From NCBI GenBank assembly GCA_009991595.1, contig JAACVK010000028.1, positions 4,137-68,136 of the forward strand: a stretch of 64,000 nt of DNA, in the 5' to 3' direction. Positions within the stretch are counted from its first letter, which is position 1. The number at the start of each line of letters is the position of its first letter. This DNA comes from a bacterium (GTDB taxonomy: Bacteria; Bdellovibrionota; UBA2428). The translations under genes were made by a program, and so were the position numbers. The notes under the pieces were generated by a model. It was not told the origin of the DNA and did no database searches. It saw only the letters and a program-made list of their open reading frames with translations. This document shows, in pieces, positions 35,416-45,360 of the stretch.

Positions 35416-36195
35416 TTGACAACTCCAATGAAGGGCCGATACGAGGTTGCGTTAGCATTTTTCTTACCGTGGATTTTAGACTTCTTTATGGGTCGATCCG
35501 TCATGGCTTCACTCATTGGTGCCTCCATTTGGGGAATAGGGGTTCTTTTGGTCCTTTTGAGGACTCGGATAAAAGAAGTCCGTTTAAAGAAAAATCTTAC
35601 GTATATTGCGGGTTTTCTTTTTGGAATTTGGATCGGGCTATGGCTTGTTTCTGCCAACGAATCGGTGGTTTGGGCTTGGAACGAAACCGGACTCAGGCTT
35701 CTAACCATTGGCCACGCCTCACTGCTAACAGCTGGTTTTGGAATGACCTTGGTCTTGCTAGTCTCTTCCATTGCTTGGCTCCTTAAAGAGCGAGGCTTGA
35801 AGAATAAGAAATCTCAAAGATGGCTACCTTCCCTTGAAGGGCTCGCTAAAGCCAGTCACATTTCTTTGAGAGCCTCCATTTGGTTTTGGACCACCGGGCT
35901 GTTTTTCGCGATTTTAGCTGCACTTATTCGCTGGCAACGAGTTCACGATGTTCCCGCCTTTGGCGCCCTCATTCACTACGAATGGCTCTCCGATCCCAAA
36001 GTTATTCTAAGCATTGCACTTTGGATTCCCCTAGTGCTTTGTCGATTGTTTCGCGGAGTCTTTTCCGAAATCCAAAAAGCTCGTTACCAAAGCTTTGCCG
36101 TTATGGCCTTGCTTTTTGTTATGATTTTCCTGTTCATGTCTTCCACGGAATTGCCCTTTAGCCGCCACGAAGCCTTGAGGTGGATCACTCGATGA
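35416..36195 (+). CDS. polytopic inner-membrane protein immediately upstream of hemA (possibly CcsA/HemX-like)
   Basis: 259 aa. About six TM helices. Trp-rich VWAWNETG segment. 16-bp overlap with hemA. Confidence 0.35.
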   Translation: MTTPMKGRYEVALAFFLPWILDFFMGRSVMASLIGASIWGIGVLLVLLRTRIKEVRLKKNLTYIAGFLFGIWIGLWLVSANESVVWAWNETGLRLLTIGHASLLTAGFGMTLVLLVSSIAWLLKERGLKNKKSQRWLPSLEGLAKASHISLRASIWFWTTGLFFAILAALIRWQRVHDVPAFGALIHYEWLSDPKVILSIALWIPLVLCRLFRGVFSEIQKARYQSFAVMALLFVMIFLFMSSTELPFSRHEALRWITR

Positions 36196-37514
36196 GTAAC
36201 CAATGGGTAGATTCTCTCAGCTGCCTCAGCGTAAGCGCGATCAAAGAAGTCCCCGCCAATATAAGAGAAGCCCTTACTTTGAGTCCTAGAATCAAAGCTG
36301 AAGCCCTCAAAGATTGGATCACATCCTCACGGCAAAGGAATAAACGAGCCTCACTATTCTATTTAAGCACTTGTCACCGAGTTGAGCTCTATGGCTTCGA
36401 TATTGATCCGGAGGATCTAAGGAGAAAGTGGGCGGAGCTTGCTGGTGAAGAAGCAACGAAATGTTTTGAAATATTGCGAGGTAAAGAATGCCTTCGTCAC
36501 TGGATACGAGCTTGTGCAAGCTTAGAAAGTGAAGTGTTGGGAGAAACCCAAATCACTGGCCAAATGAAAGACGCCTTTCAAGAAGCCAGGCAAGAAGGGT
36601 TGCTCTCGGGGCCTTTAGATAGATTCTCCCAGCGAGTTCTGGCTTCCTCCAAGTTTTTAAGATCCTCCTTACCTCTTGGAGAGGGGACTGTGAGTGTGGC
36701 CCACGTTGCCGTTGATGGGCTAAAAGATTTCTTTGATGACCTAAGCGGAAAGTCTGCCCTCGTGGTGGGCGCTGGATCCATGGCAAAACAGAGTATCTCT
36801 CGCCTCAAAAAACTTGGGGTAGAGAAGATCTATTGGGCCAATCGAAGCGAGTCCAAAATTGATCAAAGCCCTTTACTCGATGAAAGAACCACCAAGGTAG
36901 ATTTTTCTCAGATTCATTCCCATGTTTGGAACAACGCCATCTCCGTGGTAGCGACCTCGAGCCACACAAAAATCATCAAAGAAGGAAGACTTTTCAACAC
37001 CGAAGCAACTCTTCGAAGTTCTGAAAGCATTTCCACTAGAGTCATTTTGGACCTTGGCCTGCCTCGCAACGTTGAACATGAAATTCATGGTAAAGAAGGG
37101 TTCTTCGTTCGAGACGTCGATGAATTCAGTAATATTGCCGGTGAAAACTCTGAAAAAAGACGTAAATACATGTATTTGGCGGAAAAATTAGTCGAGCAGG
37201 AGATCTTAAAAATTGAGGAAAACACTCGCTCCTGGAGCCAAGTCCCGTTAATCACAGAACTTATTGATCTCATTCAAGAAAGAAAAGAAGACGATCTCCA
37301 ACGCTTCAAACTGGAAAAATCTGGAAATATCGAGTATATAACAGGGAACATTTATTCAAGTTTGTTGCACGGCATCTTGAAAGAAGCTGAGAGACTCGAT
37401 GAAGAGGCCTCAAATGACTTTCTTCAAAATATTGTGCGTGCATGGAGGCACTCAGGAAAATGGCGGCGAAATCAAAAAGCGGAGCTAAAAAAAGTACCGC
37501 AAAAAAATCCGTAG
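36180..37514 (+). CDS. hemA: glutamyl-tRNA reductase
   Basis: 444 aa. Active-site LSTCHRVELYG, NADPH-binding VVGAGSMAKQSI, dimerisation-domain length appropriate. Confidence 0.85.
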   Translation: MDHSMSNQWVDSLSCLSVSAIKEVPANIREALTLSPRIKAEALKDWITSSRQRNKRASLFYLSTCHRVELYGFDIDPEDLRRKWAELAGEEATKCFEILRGKECLRHWIRACASLESEVLGETQITGQMKDAFQEARQEGLLSGPLDRFSQRVLASSKFLRSSLPLGEGTVSVAHVAVDGLKDFFDDLSGKSALVVGAGSMAKQSISRLKKLGVEKIYWANRSESKIDQSPLLDERTTKVDFSQIHSHVWNNAISVVATSSHTKIIKEGRLFNTEATLRSSESISTRVILDLGLPRNVEHEIHGKEGFFVRDVDEFSNIAGENSEKRRKYMYLAEKLVEQEILKIEENTRSWSQVPLITELIDLIQERKEDDLQRFKLEKSGNIEYITGNIYSSLLHGILKEAERLDEEASNDFLQNIVRAWRHSGKWRRNQKAELKKVPQKNP

Positions 37515-38713
37515 CAAAAAAAGCTACAGCCACTAAAAAGAAGGCTGAAGCAGCTGCCAAGCCCGCTAGCTCATCTAAAAAAGTTGCAACGAAGAAAAAG
37601 GCTACAAAAAAGAAGAGTAGCCCTTTAGGATCTTTCGGTAGGTCCGCCAAGGCTACTTCAAAACTTTCGGGAATGTCCGGCATAGGGTTGGACTTCATTG
37701 GTCGATTTCCCGTTCGACAAAAGAACTCTGAAAAAAAGAATGATCAGAAAAAGCAGAACGTTGGCCCTGTTTTTCCACAAGGCGAATACCAAATCGCTTG
37801 TCGCAAGGATTCGTTGTCAGAAGCTCTGTTGCATGAATTTGTTGCAGTCTTCAAATCGAAGCACACCAAAGATAAATTACATAAAAAAGAAATTCCGCCT
37901 TCTAACAAAGAACCATTTATTAGCCTAGAAGAAAGCCCTAGCTACCTTCATAGACATGTTTATACTAGAGCGGCTTTTGATTCTCTTAAAGACAAAGAAT
38001 TCGACATGTTGGTCATCAACATGAAGCAAGTTCCGTTACAACTCCCAAAAGAGTTGACCATCGCCGCGTGTCTTCCTCGAGAAGACCCTAGAGATGCGAT
38101 GGTAACCACGGGAACCTATGGTGCAATTCAAGAACTTCCTACCAATGCCCGCATTGGCGCAAATTCGCGCAGAAGATTGATGCAAATCAAAGCCTTGCGC
38201 CCAGACATCGAAATCATCGAAGTGCGCGGAGATGCCGATGAACGAATTCGACAGCTAAAAGCCAAAGACCTATCTGCTGTTATGCTCGCATGGGCAACTC
38301 TACGACGTTTGAATATTTCTCCACGTTACTACGTGGCTCTTCAACCCGAGCAAATGCTTTCAGCCGGATGCCAAGGCATTGCGGGAATTATTTGCAGAAG
38401 CTCTGACAAAGAACTGATCGAGAAACTAAACTATGTTGACGACTCAGAAGCCTCATGGGCAAGTCGTTGTGAGCGTGCTTTCTTGCAAAAGTTCGGTGAA
38501 TTCGGAGACATCCCCGTGGGCGCCAATGCTCACCGCAAAGGCACTCAAGATCCTTGGATTTTGGACGCAGTTATTGGTGATGCTGAATCCGGAGAAGTTC
38601 TTCAACATCGAGAAATTGGAACAAGTCGCTGTAAGCCTGAATCGCTGGCCGACAAGGCTTATGTCGGAGTGCTTGCTAAGGGTGCCAGAAAATTTTTACC
38701 GTTTAACTTTTAA
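37442..38713 (+). CDS. hydroxymethylbilane synthase (HemC)-like protein, apparently catalytically degenerate, with ~110-aa Lys/Ala-rich (histone H1-like) N-terminal tail
   Basis: Residues about 116-423 align along the whole HemC fold: [12 protein letters not shown] ~ [64 protein letters not shown] ~ [70 protein letters not shown] ~ AERAMNTRLEGGCQVPIG. Confidence 0.6.
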   Translation: [423 protein letters not shown]

Positions 38714-39732: not shown

Positions 39733-41079
39733 CTACACTATCTCCTTCGCTACTTCTCGCGATTTTTCTAGCAAATCCGAAAGTCCAATTCTTCCGAGGT
39801 AATTCCCCACAAGATAAACTTTTTTTTGTTTAAATTTAGACTGAAAGGAAGACTCTCTTAGATACTTTTCCAACTCAACTGAATAATACGGAAGAGCCTG
39901 AGGCCAGGTTTGAACTCTGAGGTCTCGAAAGACAAGCTCTTTTCCATACAAAGCCCTTTGTGATTCCTTAATCCAGCTTTCCAAAGAGTCCTTAGAGTGA
40001 TTCACTCCAGAAAAAATCCACGTTTCAGAGCGCAGAGAGCTTCGATTCTCAAAAATATCAGAGTTGAAAAGAACCCCGAGAGGAGTGATTCCTTCTTCTC
40101 GCGCAAAAAGCACTCCAAAGCCATGAATCTGTTTTGGGTCTGTCTCACAAAAAGTCGTCACGGATGTTAAAGGCAACATTTCCGAAACATTGAGCAAAGC
40201 TCTACTCTCGCATGGAAATTGTTTATTAAGCAAGCTAGCAGCACAAGAAGCTGAAGACGCAATCAAGACAACATCAAAATCCTTCTGCAAGCGTAAAAGA
40301 TTTTCAGAATCCATCGCCTGTCCAAAATGAAGAACAACTCCACTTTTCTTGAGAAAGGCCTCCATTCCCTTTATCCATTCGCCCATACCCTTTTTAGGAG
40401 CCACACTTTGGCGCTTAACGGCGCTTTTCTTTCTAGACTTATCAAACAAGCGTGACAAAACTAAACTTGCACTTAGACGCTCAGAGCTTCCCGCATAAAT
40501 GCCTTGGATCGCGGGTGCTATCAACTTTAAACTAACTGCTGCGCCTAAAGCTCGAATGGCCCATTCAGACAAAGTTTCACCAGCTAAAGGTTTTTTATTC
40601 TTCACCAAGGGAAGAATAAAAATCATTTTAAGAGTTTCCCATAGGGATAATGGCCAACGTTGAGCCTTCTTATCTACATAGATGTAGCGTCTTTTGCTTT
40701 CTCTCAAAGCAGAATGAAGCCTAACCCCAATATCCCGTGAAATTTCCTGTAAAAGTTCAGTATCGACAAAAGCATTGGCGGCCGTCTCTACAAGACCTTT
40801 GGGAGTTTCTATTGTAGAAATTAGACCACCAGACGTTGGACGACGTTCGAAGACTTCGACCTGACAACCAAATTTGGACAAAAAGTAAGCAGAACTCAAT
40901 CCCGATATTCCAGCCCCAACAATGGCTACTTTTTTACTTGGTGCCTTCACTGGATTAACTATACTTTTGCCTAACTCTTTGAACAAAATAACGAACGTGT
41001 TCCTGAGGAGTTTTAGGCAAGACTCCGTGCCCCAATCCACAAACCCAGCGTGAGCGTTGGACGGAGTTGAGCTGATCAA
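39733..41079 (-). CDS. hemY: protoporphyrinogen/coproporphyrinogen oxidase, HemY (FAD amine-oxidase) family
   Basis: FAD dinucleotide motif KKVAIVGAGISGLSSAYFL about 50 aa into the track ORF. The ORF overlaps hemE by about 125 bp, so the real start is probably near GTG about 40948 (protein about 405 aa). Confidence 0.75.
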   Translation of the reverse strand: MISSTPSNAHAGFVDWGTESCLKLLRNTFVILFKELGKSIVNPVKAPSKKVAIVGAGISGLSSAYFLSKFGCQVEVFERRPTSGGLISTIETPKGLVETAANAFVDTELLQEISRDIGVRLHSALRESKRRYIYVDKKAQRWPLSLWETLKMIFILPLVKNKKPLAGETLSEWAIRALGAAVSLKLIAPAIQGIYAGSSERLSASLVLSRLFDKSRKKSAVKRQSVAPKKGMGEWIKGMEAFLKKSGVVLHFGQAMDSENLLRLQKDFDVVLIASSASCAASLLNKQFPCESRALLNVSEMLPLTSVTTFCETDPKQIHGFGVLFAREEGITPLGVLFNSDIFENRSSLRSETWIFSGVNHSKDSLESWIKESQRALYGKELVFRDLRVQTWPQALPYYSVELEKYLRESSFQSKFKQKKVYLVGNYLGRIGLSDLLEKSREVAKEIV

Positions 41080-41974
41080 AATCTTTTAAGTAGTCGTCTA
41101 AGGTAGCTTTGAATCCAGCTTCCGGAAGAAAGAGCATGCACTGGTCAAAATTTCCTTGAACAAATCCAAATCGCTCCTCTTTAAGCAGGTCGATTACGTT
41201 CCACCTATGATCCACGCCAACGCCTGCGAATAGCTCACTAAAACAAGGATCGGAAATATGTTCTCTGTGAGTAGCCTTACCGTAATATCCGAGTTTCCCT
41301 GGATACTGGGCCGCTAATCTCTTAAGATGAGGAACACACCACTTGTTAAACTCTCTAGCTGACAACTCACCAGCAGCCGTGTCGAAGATCATGACAAGCT
41401 CTGCTCCTCCGTCCAGTTGCAACTTAATGTTCGAGATTAACAATTCAGTCATAACCTCAGCGAAACTTGCATATAAATCAGGTTGTCTCTTGGCCTCTAC
41501 CAACGACCCCGCGTGAGAGCCCTCAACAGCATAACAATACAGGGTCCACGGTCCGCCCACAAAGCCAATCAAGCTCTTGTTATCGGGCAACACCTTTCGG
41601 GTAGCTTCAACAGCCGCTTTTTGAAACTTCAAAAACTCAAGAGCTTCAGAAACAGGGCGCAGCTGGGAAAGCAAGGATCGATCAAGCTTTTTATCTAATT
41701 TGGGCCCCGGCGAATACTCCAGTCCAACACCCAATGCTTCAAGAGGAAACAAAAGATCGGAGAATAAGATCGAAACATCAAAATCGAAGTCTGCGACTGG
41801 ACCAAGAGCTACTTCGGCCGCAAGATTGGGGTCTTTGCAAAGCTCCATAAAATCGTGTGATTTTTTTAAATTTTGGTAATGATCGTGGTAACGCCCGGCT
41901 TGCCTCATAAACCAAACAGGAGGACTTTTATGGTCATACTTTCGATTAATGATAGAAGAAAATTTTGAGTTCAC
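40955..41974 (-). CDS. hemE: uroporphyrinogen decarboxylase
   Basis: 339 aa. PVWFMRQAGRY signature near the N-terminus. Confidence 0.9.
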   Translation of the reverse strand: MNSKFSSIINRKYDHKSPPVWFMRQAGRYHDHYQNLKKSHDFMELCKDPNLAAEVALGPVADFDFDVSILFSDLLFPLEALGVGLEYSPGPKLDKKLDRSLLSQLRPVSEALEFLKFQKAAVEATRKVLPDNKSLIGFVGGPWTLYCYAVEGSHAGSLVEAKRQPDLYASFAEVMTELLISNIKLQLDGGAELVMIFDTAAGELSAREFNKWCVPHLKRLAAQYPGKLGYYGKATHREHISDPCFSELFAGVGVDHRWNVIDLLKEERFGFVQGNFDQCMLFLPEAGFKATLDDYLKDFDQLNSVQRSRWVCGLGHGVLPKTPQEHVRYFVQRVRQKYS

Positions 41975-43878: not shown

Positions 43879-45360
43879 CTAGACTAGAGCCTTTAGAAAG
43901 AGTTCCTTTGTAGGGAAGGCTAAGGGAGCGACTTCGGTCTCCTCTTCGATTAGCCTTGCAGTATGACCCAAGCCACAAGCATGTAACTTAGTCTTTAGCT
44001 CAGGAAAACACTCCAAACTCCGTTTAAATTGTGAAAAGCTTTTCCAGTAGAACAGTTCAAAGCCTTGAAAATCCTCATATCTCAACGTTAAATTCTCAAG
44101 CTTGTAGGTCGCAAGAAACTCTTTATCCTTAGAAATCGCCCCATCTACATGAGACAACTTGGTCCAAACAATTGGACGCCCTATAAAGGATAGTGGGTCG
44201 TCCTGATCTTCTCCGAAAGATTCGCTACATCCATTAACAAAGAACCCTCGATCAACTAACTTCTTCCAACTATCCAAGCCAGCAGTCCAAAGAAGGCGAT
44301 GCCTCGGCTCTGTGTAGGTGACAGGCAGAGCATCAGCTTTCGCGACCCAAAGAGCATCTAACTGTTTAGGCCATTGAACAGAAATTTCTTCTCGTTTGAA
44401 AAACGAGATCCCCTCAGCACTCCACACCTTATCAACAGAAACTTTTGGAAGCGGTCGAAAGCTCTCAAAAAACTCGTCGTTCAACAAAACTCCCGCCTCT
44501 GTCTTTCCACAACAACGAATCCAAACACCAGAAGGTGTAGACCTAACACTGACTCCAATCTTTTGGTGACAACCACCACCATGATACTTCAGTATTTTAC
44601 GCTCTTCCTGAACGTCTGAAAAAGTCTTCTCACAATGAATCTCCATCAGGAGGTCTCTCATTCTCTGATCATTCTTACGAATTTCTATTGCCAGAGCTCC
44701 TTGAGCCGCTGCGTTTGGGTTTTCTCGTAAAGGCACGACAATGAAGTTTAAACTCTTAAAGGACTCCAATAGTTGCTTTTTAGTTTTTTCAAACTCGATC
44801 TCAGATCTAGTCACTAAGCGATCGAGAGCTGCTTTTGCCACGACAAGTGCACTTGCATCCTTTGATTCAATTAACTTTTGGACTCGGGTCGGAACGTTGC
44901 CACGGATATCTAAAAATTCGACGTGCTTAGGTTTAGAGGGCAAAAATTCTTTGAGGAAAGGATCTAAATTGAAAGCTCTCCGCGGAGAAGAAGAGAATAC
45001 CTTCAGTTCGGCAGATGGTTGATCGAGCCATTCCTTTTTTATCAAGATTAAATCTCGTGGGTCAGCGCGCTGAGTTGTTGCAACTACTTCGGTTTGTTCT
45101 GCCAACTCTGTTGGCAAATCCTTCCAAGAGTGAACGACCAAATCACACTCGCCATTGACTAGATCCTTAGTCAAGTCTTGGGTGAAAACCCCTTTCTCTG
45201 GCATTTTCCAAAGTGGGTCGTGGAGGTTGATATCGCCAAGCGATTTCTTGAACAAAAATTCCACTCCCAAATGAGGGTGGGCGGTTAACAGACAATCCCT
45301 CACATGCATCGCTTGCACGCGGGCTAAATCACTTCTCCTGGCTCCAATTCGTATTTTCAT
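43879..45360 (-). CDS. hemC: hydroxymethylbilane synthase with ~180-aa C-terminal extension (possibly truncated uroporphyrinogen-III synthase-like)
   Basis: N-terminal ~310 aa carry the catalytic Asp (HSWKDLP), RGNVPTRVQKL and the cofactor cysteine (GGGCHQKIG). The C-terminal ~180 aa carry no motif I can assign. Confidence 0.8.
   Translation of the reverse strand: MKIRIGARRSDLARVQAMHVRDCLLTAHPHLGVEFLFKKSLGDINLHDPLWKMPEKGVFTQDLTKDLVNGECDLVVHSWKDLPTELAEQTEVVATTQRADPRDLILIKKEWLDQPSAELKVFSSSPRRAFNLDPFLKEFLPSKPKHVEFLDIRGNVPTRVQKLIESKDASALVVAKAALDRLVTRSEIEFEKTKKQLLESFKSLNFIVVPLRENPNAAAQGALAIEIRKNDQRMRDLLMEIHCEKTFSDVQEERKILKYHGGGCHQKIGVSVRSTPSGVWIRCCGKTEAGVLLNDEFFESFRPLPKVSVDKVWSAEGISFFKREEISVQWPKQLDALWVAKADALPVTYTEPRHRLLWTAGLDSWKKLVDRGFFVNGCSESFGEDQDDPLSFIGRPIVWTKLSHVDGAISKDKEFLATYKLENLTLRYEDFQGFELFYWKSFSQFKRSLECFPELKTKLHACGLGHTARLIEEETEVAPLAFPTKELFLKALV

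Follow-up and report, generated by a model that had tools for sequence, protein, structure and literature searches.

At the 3' end of hemA, the gene for glutamyl-tRNA reductase, this stretch of Bdellovibrionota DNA (64,000 nucleotides, hereafter the window) carries a second open reading frame that begins before hemA has ended. The second frame is lysine-rich, encodes a protein resembling HemC and in its longest form spans 37442..38713, in the -1 frame relative to hemA. Given that the shared segment contains a run of seven adenines that can be read as a slippery heptamer, a sequence-only reading of the locus had placed three explanations side by side. These were a true gene overlap, a programmed -1 frameshift that joins HemA to the HemC-like protein, and a homopolymer length error that splits one long reading frame. 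The question is whether the locus encodes one protein or two, and how translation of the second would begin.

The locus was compared with 19 Bdellovibrionota/Bacteriovoracaceae loci, 18 of which include upstream sequence. The nearest homologue is 59% identical. The features on which the argument depends are listed in Table 1.

Table 1. Features at the hemA/HemC-like junction, within the HemC-like gene and at the canonical hemC/D gene (positions in the window)
Feature	Position	Strand	Description
hemA, glutamyl-tRNA reductase	36180..37514	+	TIGR01035 and Pfam GlutR_N, Shikimate_DH, GlutR_dimer
GGAGG, putative Shine-Dalgarno of the HemC-like gene	37444..37448	+	within hemA codons W422-R423, 11 nt before ATG 37460
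HemC-like start codon (predicted)	37460..37462	+	MAAKSKSG...; P0001 and JGI/Logan gene calls; relatives start MA.K
Low-complexity N-terminal tail, aa 1-76	37460..37687	+	K/A/S/T-rich, predicted disordered (AF2 pLDDT 41-53)
First A7 run	37487..37493	+	A_AAA_AAA in the hemA frame; AAA-AAA-A(GT), Lys-Lys-Ser, in the HemC-like frame
Second A7 run	37501..37507	+	(GC)A-AAA-AAA, Ala-Lys-Lys, in the HemC-like frame; A_AAA_AAT in the hemA frame from 37502
hemA stop codon TAG	37512-37514	+	Val codon GTA plus G of the next codon in the HemC-like frame
Third A7 run	37516..37522	+	Ala-Lys-Lys-Ala; just past the hemA stop
Family-specific motif, aa 77-108	37688..37783	+	LDFIGxFPxRK...KKQxxGPVF; ahead of the folded core
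HMBS-fold core of the HemC-like paralogue, aa 109-417 and stop	37784..38713	+	PF01379, E=3.6e-40
Canonical hemC fused to a hemD-like C-terminal part, 493 aa	43879..45360	-	TIGR00212, 191.3 bits, profile positions 1-259

Results

Translation starts at the junction

Counted from GTG 36180, the hemA product is 444 aa long; the JGI and Logan gene calls prefer ATG 36192, which gives 440 aa. The protein passes the equivalog threshold of TIGR01035 (222 bits, cutoff 209.55) with aa 22-417 matched, and carries the Pfam domains PF05201, PF01488 and PF00745, the last as a weak match (19.8 bits). The ORF upstream overlaps hemA by 4 nt. At the other end of the gene, the overlap with the HemC-like frame covers HemA aa 428-444, and given that the profile match stops earlier, at aa 417, these 17 codons lie outside the conserved family.

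The database protein P0001 (417 aa) begins with MAAKSKSG, which corresponds to ATG 37460, and the gene calls on the JGI contig and the Logan contig also put the HemC-like start at this codon. The overlap had been described from the sequence as 72 nt long. The overlap itself stands and its length does not, being 73 nt (stop included) from ATG 37442 and 55 nt from the supported ATG 37460. As a start codon, ATG 37442 was considered and rejected: it is part of the conserved GCATGGAGG element (as 'CATGG'), and the Shine-Dalgarno lies downstream of it. Given that relatives carry TTG, GTG or CTG at the matching position, and that in L008 an in-frame stop follows, ATG 37442 does not appear to be where the HemC-like gene begins.

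The sequence around the preferred start is conserved to a degree that the protein would not call for. In all 11 loci with an overlap (the window and 10 Bdellovibrionota relatives) the element GCNTGGRGGC shows no variation, and ATG-G comes 11-14 nt after it. Read in the hemA frame the element is Ala-Trp-Arg. The wobble base of the alanine codon is free to vary, and the codon after tryptophan is AGG in 9/11 loci and GGG in 2/11, with CGN in none. Because the wobble base varies while the next codon is only ever AGG or GGG, the pattern points to a constraint that acts on nucleotides, as for a GGAGG Shine-Dalgarno, and not on protein. The AWR motif is not present in relatives without a hemA/HemC-like overlap. 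A spacing of 11-14 nt between Shine-Dalgarno and ATG falls among the longer functional ones, and this counts to some extent against a genuine overlap.

Folding of 37415-37500 gave no structure around the start that would sequester the Shine-Dalgarno (z = -0.80). A crude consensus scan detected neither a sigma-70-like promoter nor a terminator on the + strand at the junction, and its sole + strand promoter-like matches were weak and lay within the HemC-like ORF. A candidate 'terminator' on the minus strand (37529..37509) was discarded, as it merely mirrors an A-run of the other strand. An Rfam search at the gathering threshold, covering the whole window, returned no match.

It is conceivable that the HemC-like gene starts further downstream, at Met72 (ATG 37673) just before LDFIG. 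In this scenario the lysine-rich stretch would be an untranslated spacer and there would be no functional overlap. Such a start would agree with the homologues P0015, P0016, P0028, P0035, P0036 and P0044, which are tail-less and begin right before FIG (M-[ED]-FIG), and with the predicted disorder of the tail. However, it is where the tail begins that the conserved Shine-Dalgarno and ATG-GCN are found, every relative keeps the tail frame open and consistently K/A/S/T in composition, and substitutions between L017 and L014 are biased towards third codon positions in this frame (see below). There is no convincing Shine-Dalgarno before ATG 37673 either, where only a GGGA sits directly beside the ATG. 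We consider a start at Met72 improbable, and suggest that ribosomes would initiate at ATG 37460.

Conservation, selection and length of the overlap

In 18/18 related loci with upstream sequence, hemA lies immediately 5' of the HemC-like gene, and in every one of them the two are separate ORFs. Ten related loci have an overlap, which ranges from 52 to 118 nt. Nine have none: in seven of these the hemA stop TAA is followed after 3 nt by ATG, and in two the genes are separated by a gap of 30-51 nt. With the window included, the downstream gene is in the -1 frame in 10 of the 11 overlaps, the exception being L018, where it is in the +1 frame.

These loci bear directly on the suggestion that a homopolymer-length assembly error at an A7 run has split one long hemA-hemC ORF. 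Three A7 runs crowd into 36 nt, and some sequencing platforms are prone to errors in runs of this kind. However, a JGI metagenome contig (4676 nt) and the Logan assembly of SRR6053076 (3920 nt), which may share reads, show zero mismatches over the junction, and the two-ORF arrangement of the relatives extends to L009, L010, L015 and L018, whose overlaps contain no homopolymer of at least 6 nt. A conserved Shine-Dalgarno and ATG would be purposeless inside a single ORF, and the HemA profile stops before the junction. An error of this kind seems to us extremely improbable.

For the overlap as a real feature, the pair L017 and L014 shows which of the two frames is maintained. Across their 91-nt overlap, 12 of 17 substitutions fall at position 3 of the downstream codons, which is position 2 of the hemA codons, and amino-acid identity is 26/30 in the downstream frame as against 18/29 in the hemA frame. 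Given that the substitutions favour the third codon position of the downstream frame, selection in the overlap acts on this frame only, and the hemA tail is unconstrained.

The length of the overlap is what composition predicts, with hemA ending at the first chance stop. Each hemA codon starts on the second base of a downstream codon, so the hemA frame can close only where that base is T. Among the first 75 downstream codons just 8 qualify, a scarcity that follows from the abundance of Lys, Ala, Ser and Thr in the tail. Where the 10 overlaps in the -1 frame (window included) end, the downstream frame has a Val or Leu codon in every case. The codons of the HemC-like tail were also shuffled, with ATG-GCG held fixed because A-initial codons after the ATG would create ATGA stops. 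The median overlap in the shuffled tails was 55 nt (5-95% range 13-160), and the observed overlap is 55 nt. Overlaps between bacterial genes are usually 1 or 4 nt, and that this one is far longer has to be set against the view that it is genuine.

The A7 runs and the slippery heptamer

The hemA frame reads CTA-AAA-AAA-GTA at 37485-37496, which places A_AAA_AAA in the zero frame, with six sense codons between the heptamer and the hemA stop. On these points the sequence-only reading was accurate, and the sequence also bears out its statement that a -1 slip at the heptamer enters the frame of the K-rich ORF, where it continues AGT ACC GCA AAA AAA TCC GTA (STAKKSVAKK). The second A7 run that it described is present as well; a third had been missed.

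The heptamer is a by-product of composition and lysine codon choice. In the HemC-like gene the A7 runs encode Lys-Lys as AAA-AAA dicodons, of which its tail has four, and any AAA-AAA dicodon in the downstream frame reads as A_AAA_AAN one base later in the hemA frame. The window holds 19 A-runs and 16 T-runs of at least 7 nt, and in-frame A_AAA_AAR motifs number 20 in its 46 ORFs of at least 200 aa (10 A_AAA_AAA, 10 A_AAA_AAG).

A programmed -1 frameshift at the first A7 run, or transcriptional slippage that adds one A there, would produce a functional fusion of HemA(1-438), a K-rich linker and HemC-like aa 12-417, 844 aa in length. In its favour, the heptamer is in the right frame, the -1 frame leads without a stop into the HemC-like ORF, and the -1 frame prevails among the overlap loci. 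A_AAA_AAA is moreover shift-prone: heptamers without stimulators give ~0.1-0.5% frameshifting in E. coli, with A_AAA_AAA among the motifs above 0.1% (Sharma et al., PMC4066793). Together with A_AAA_AAG it accounts for 72% of the heptamers in IS1/IS3 elements (PMC4066793), and C_AAA_AAA gave 25-60% frameshifting in the over-expression vector pDEST17 (Belfield et al., PMC1851650).

The relatives argue against a programmed event. Neither A_AAA_AAA nor A_AAA_AAG is found in the overlap of any of the 10 related overlap loci; the overlaps of L008, L010, L015 and L018 lack any X_XXY_YYZ motif, and those of L009 and L014 have weak motifs only (A_AAC_CCG, G_GGA_AAT). The +1 frame of L018 and the nine loci without an overlap are equally hard to reconcile with it, and the ease with which AAA-AAA dicodons generate heptamers weighs against it too. 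None of the 81 database homologues of the HemC-like protein is fused to HemA, the longest being 526 aa and the sole Pfam domains among them PF01379 and PF03900.

Stimulatory elements point in the same direction. No stimulatory structure follows the heptamer: the predicted fold of 37494-37580 has an energy of -16.2 kcal/mol, no better than that of shuffled sequence (z = -1.13), and the first helix in this fold starts 18 nt downstream of the heptamer. A Shine-Dalgarno-like stimulator is likewise missing from the 10-14 nt upstream of the shift site, the spacing that Larsen et al. reportedly described for dnaX in 1994. The nearest upstream GGAG (37481-37484) is 2-3 nt away from the heptamer, a spacing that in work on prfB and dnaX is unfavourable to -1 shifts, and the GGAGG of the HemC-like gene is ~39 nt away. 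Productive transcriptional slippage in bacteria typically involves runs of A9 or longer, and A7 is below this. A functional fusion made in either way is very unlikely in our judgement; low-level accidental slippage at A_AAA_AAA may nevertheless be possible.

A HemC-like paralogue beside a canonical hemC/D

The N-terminal tail of the HemC-like protein has 22 Lys codons of 75, and both its length and its sequence vary among relatives, some family members having no tail at all. In the AlphaFold model (mean pLDDT 79.5) aa 1 to ~105 are disordered and aa 109-417 are folded with confidence, most of the core exceeding 90; aa 71-100 stay at a pLDDT of 41-53, and the block aa 101-110 already averages 84. 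The family-specific motif that precedes the core has near-invariant columns at I80, G81, F83, P84, K92, K97, K98, G102, P103 and F105. In Foldseek comparisons the folded part matches the bacterial HMBS structures 4MLV, 5H6O and 1PDA with TM scores of 0.89-0.94 at 25-28% identity. Against TIGR00212 the protein scores 169.5, a narrow pass of the cutoff of 164 that involves profile positions 54-277 only.

The active-site columns were compared in an alignment of 34 family members and 9 canonical HMBS. The cysteine that holds the dipyrromethane cofactor (E. coli Cys242, in G-[GS]-C) is present in 9/9 canonical sequences and in 0/34 family members, and the window sequence at this site is FGEFGDIPVG. 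The catalytic aspartate (E. coli Asp84, S-x-K-D) is replaced by Gln in the window (NMKQVP) and is D, E, Q or N across the family, and the Arg11 and Arg149 columns are not conserved. Retained in the family are REDPRD, the equivalent of K83, the paired Arg131/132 and the Q-G motif. The family also has invariant motifs of its own, namely LDFIGxFP before the core, RKGTQDPWILD and GTSRCKPESLADKA. Two cysteines elsewhere in the protein, Cys337 and Cys391, are invariant in the family.

A canonical hemC/D is encoded on the opposite strand of the same window, with the motifs RIGARRS, SWKDLP and GGGC all present and 41% identity to the HemCD of L013. Full canonical hemC/D genes are found in L012 and L013, and partial matches occur at the locus ends of 6 further loci. 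Given that ferrochelatase, protoporphyrinogen oxidase and uroporphyrinogen decarboxylase genes follow the HemC-like gene of the window on the opposite strand, the locus is a heme biosynthesis cluster. The hemC/D gene is probably the real hydroxymethylbilane synthase of this genome. Since it has all of the canonical motifs and is located in the same window, the HemC-like protein would not be the genome's enzyme for the hydroxymethylbilane step. We regard it as a paralogue, for which the earlier label of 'pseudo-HemC' is justified by the missing cofactor cysteine and the presence of a canonical gene.

Discussion

Taken together, these analyses make it very probable that hemA and the HemC-like gene are a genuinely overlapping, separately translated pair within one heme operon, an arrangement that is conserved in the clade. 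Of the three explanations that the sequence had first suggested, this one is borne out by the conserved internal Shine-Dalgarno and start, by the overlaps in 10 related loci and by the selection on the downstream frame alone. Programmed frameshifting and a homopolymer error are both unsupported. The former meets a heptamer that is not conserved, the lack of a stimulator, a downstream gene with initiation signals of its own and the absence of a fused homologue. The latter meets two further assemblies that are identical over the junction, as well as relatives in which there are two ORFs everywhere, even where the overlap has no homopolymer.

On this view the locus works as follows. Ribosomes would translate hemA as far as its TAG, and the HemC-like gene would be initiated independently at ATG 37460 from the GGAGG embedded in the last conserved hemA codons (Ala-Trp-Arg). 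With an ATG-GCN (Met-Ala) start, the hemA frame reads TGG at this point and encounters no ATGA stop. It then runs on to where the downstream frame has its first hydrophobic codon, here GTA, which with the G that follows supplies the TAG. The last 17 hemA codons are a passive, unconstrained tail. We infer that expression of hemA and of the HemC-like gene is translationally coupled, and no fusion product would be expected.

For annotation, this means that hemA and the HemC-like gene would be a correctly annotated overlapping pair, with an overlap that is real but ordinary and that includes an internal ribosome-binding site. A lysine-rich N-terminus looks like a frameshift cassette when its codons are read one base off, which is a reason for caution in scans that look for an overlap plus a slippery heptamer.

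The paralogue may matter more than the overlap. It is an HMBS-fold protein without the cofactor cysteine, always coupled to hemA and present alongside a canonical hemC/D, and a search of the literature brought up no relevant description of a HemC paralogue in Bdellovibrio. Because the gene always adjoins hemA and has its Shine-Dalgarno inside it, its product may act with HemA as a partner or as its regulator. We therefore raise, as a tentative idea with the chances against it, that the family could be a Bdellovibrionota-specific, cofactor-less HMBS-fold pseudo-enzyme with a polybasic disordered tail and the LDFIGxFP motif. It might serve glutamyl-tRNA reductase as a stoichiometric partner or as a regulator, for instance by sensing porphobilinogen or another tetrapyrrole precursor, and a rare -1 slip at the runs of Lys codons could now and then tether the two proteins covalently. 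The paralogue is an uncharacterised candidate for controlling heme synthesis at its first committed step in the predatory Bdellovibrionota.

Comparison with known systems

The HemC-like core has the three-domain HMBS fold of HemC (1PDA, 4MLV, 5H6O). Unlike HemC, the family lacks the cofactor cysteine (34/34), has a variable catalytic aspartate, carries a polybasic disordered tail and motifs of its own, and coexists with canonical hemC/D.

The junction resembles E. coli dnaX in having an A-rich Lys-Lys heptamer in the zero frame, close to where an ORF ends on its 3' side. However, dnaX has A_AAA_AAG, a hairpin and a Shine-Dalgarno-like element, whereas here the heptamer ends in A, there is no hairpin 5-9 nt downstream and no Shine-Dalgarno-like element 10-14 nt upstream, the heptamer is not conserved, and the downstream frame has its own initiation signals. 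With the orfA-orfB arrangement of IS3 and IS911 the locus has in common two overlapping ORFs, the second in the -1 frame, and an A_AAA_AAA in the overlap. In IS elements, though, orfB is usually without an efficient start, and the motif and its stimulator are conserved in the family; at the hemA/HemC-like junction the opposite is the case.

The locus is also like the overlapping, translationally coupled genes of bacterial operons. The two genes share a strand in what is probably one biosynthetic operon, and the 3' end of the upstream gene contains a Shine-Dalgarno and ATG for the downstream one, an arrangement conserved among relatives. Unlike the usual coupled genes, which overlap by 1 or 4 nt, those of this clade overlap by 52-118 nt and combine an ATG-GCN start with a tail that is poor in position-2 T. 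The long overlap can be ascribed to these two properties, because ATG-GCN gives no ATGA stop and a Lys/Ala/Ser/Thr tail is short of the position-2 T from which a stop in the hemA frame would be made.

Features of the HemC-like paralogue and its neighbours

The gene immediately 3' of hemA (37460..38713, +) is a paralogue of hemC, and it holds that position in all 18 related loci. The dipyrromethane-cofactor Cys is absent from each of the 34 family members examined, and in the protein encoded here the position of the catalytic Asp is occupied by Gln. Nearby is a canonical hemC/hemD-like fusion in which every motif is present (see table). Judging from these residues and this gene order, the HemC-like protein is a candidate pseudo-enzyme or partner of glutamyl-tRNA reductase (GluTR). 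Our literature search found no paper on this paralogue.

N-terminal to the HMBS-fold core, the HemC-like protein carries a conserved motif, LDFIGxFPxRK....KKxDxKKQxxGPVF, that looks like a linear interaction motif. The predicted structure is mostly of low confidence in this region (pLDDT 41-53, aa 71-100). The motif is kept even in family members that have no Lys-rich tail; the tail itself differs in length among them, between 0 and about 200 aa (e.g., the family proteins P0056, P0046 and P0049), with no sequence conservation across the family.

Coordinates of features around hemA and the HemC-like gene
Feature	Position	Strand	Remarks
Membrane-protein-like ORF, 235-259 aa	35416..36195	+	
Antisense ORF, 130 aa, Phe-rich (FFFVAFFFVATF...)	37306..37698	-	
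Lys/Ala/Ser/Thr-rich N-terminal tail of HemC-like protein	37460..37687	+	
LDFIGxFP motif	37688..37783	+	aa 77-108 of HemC-like protein; strongly conserved
Protoporphyrinogen-oxidase ORF, TTG start	39733..41079	-	mechanical ORF list
hemE	40955..41974	-	mechanical ORF list
Canonical hemC/hemD-like fusion	43879..45360	-	all motifs present; 5 kb from HemC-like gene

Gene junctions and operon structure

In a sister clade (loci L003, L004, L005, L006, L016 and L019), hemA ends in TAA and, after 3 nt, is followed by the HemC-like ATG in the same reading frame (e.g., L005 3839-3847), with an SD of AGAGG or GAGG within the final hemA codons. This arrangement may be ancestral to the long overlap, which would have arisen via loss of that TAA stop. 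Opposite the junction, the antisense ORF is an artefact: it is simply what the Lys-rich coding sequence gives when reverse-complemented. A minus-strand 'terminator' (37529..37509), the reverse complement of an A-run, is an artefact too.

The 125-nt overlap between the protoporphyrinogen-oxidase ORF and hemE in the mechanical list was likewise ruled out as an ORF-listing artefact, because in the gene calls for the JGI contig, whose sequence is identical, the oxidase has 405 aa and this overlap is absent.

Upstream, the membrane-protein-like ORF, which had no match in Pfam or NCBIfam, overlaps hemA by 4 nt (36192..36195) if hemA starts at ATG 36192, and may be the third gene of a tightly coupled operon with hemA and the HemC-like gene.

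Comparison with known systems

The Lys/Ala/Ser/Thr-rich tail of the HemC-like protein resembles that of histone H1. The ORF upstream of hemA is reminiscent, in its position, of hemX of Bacillus.
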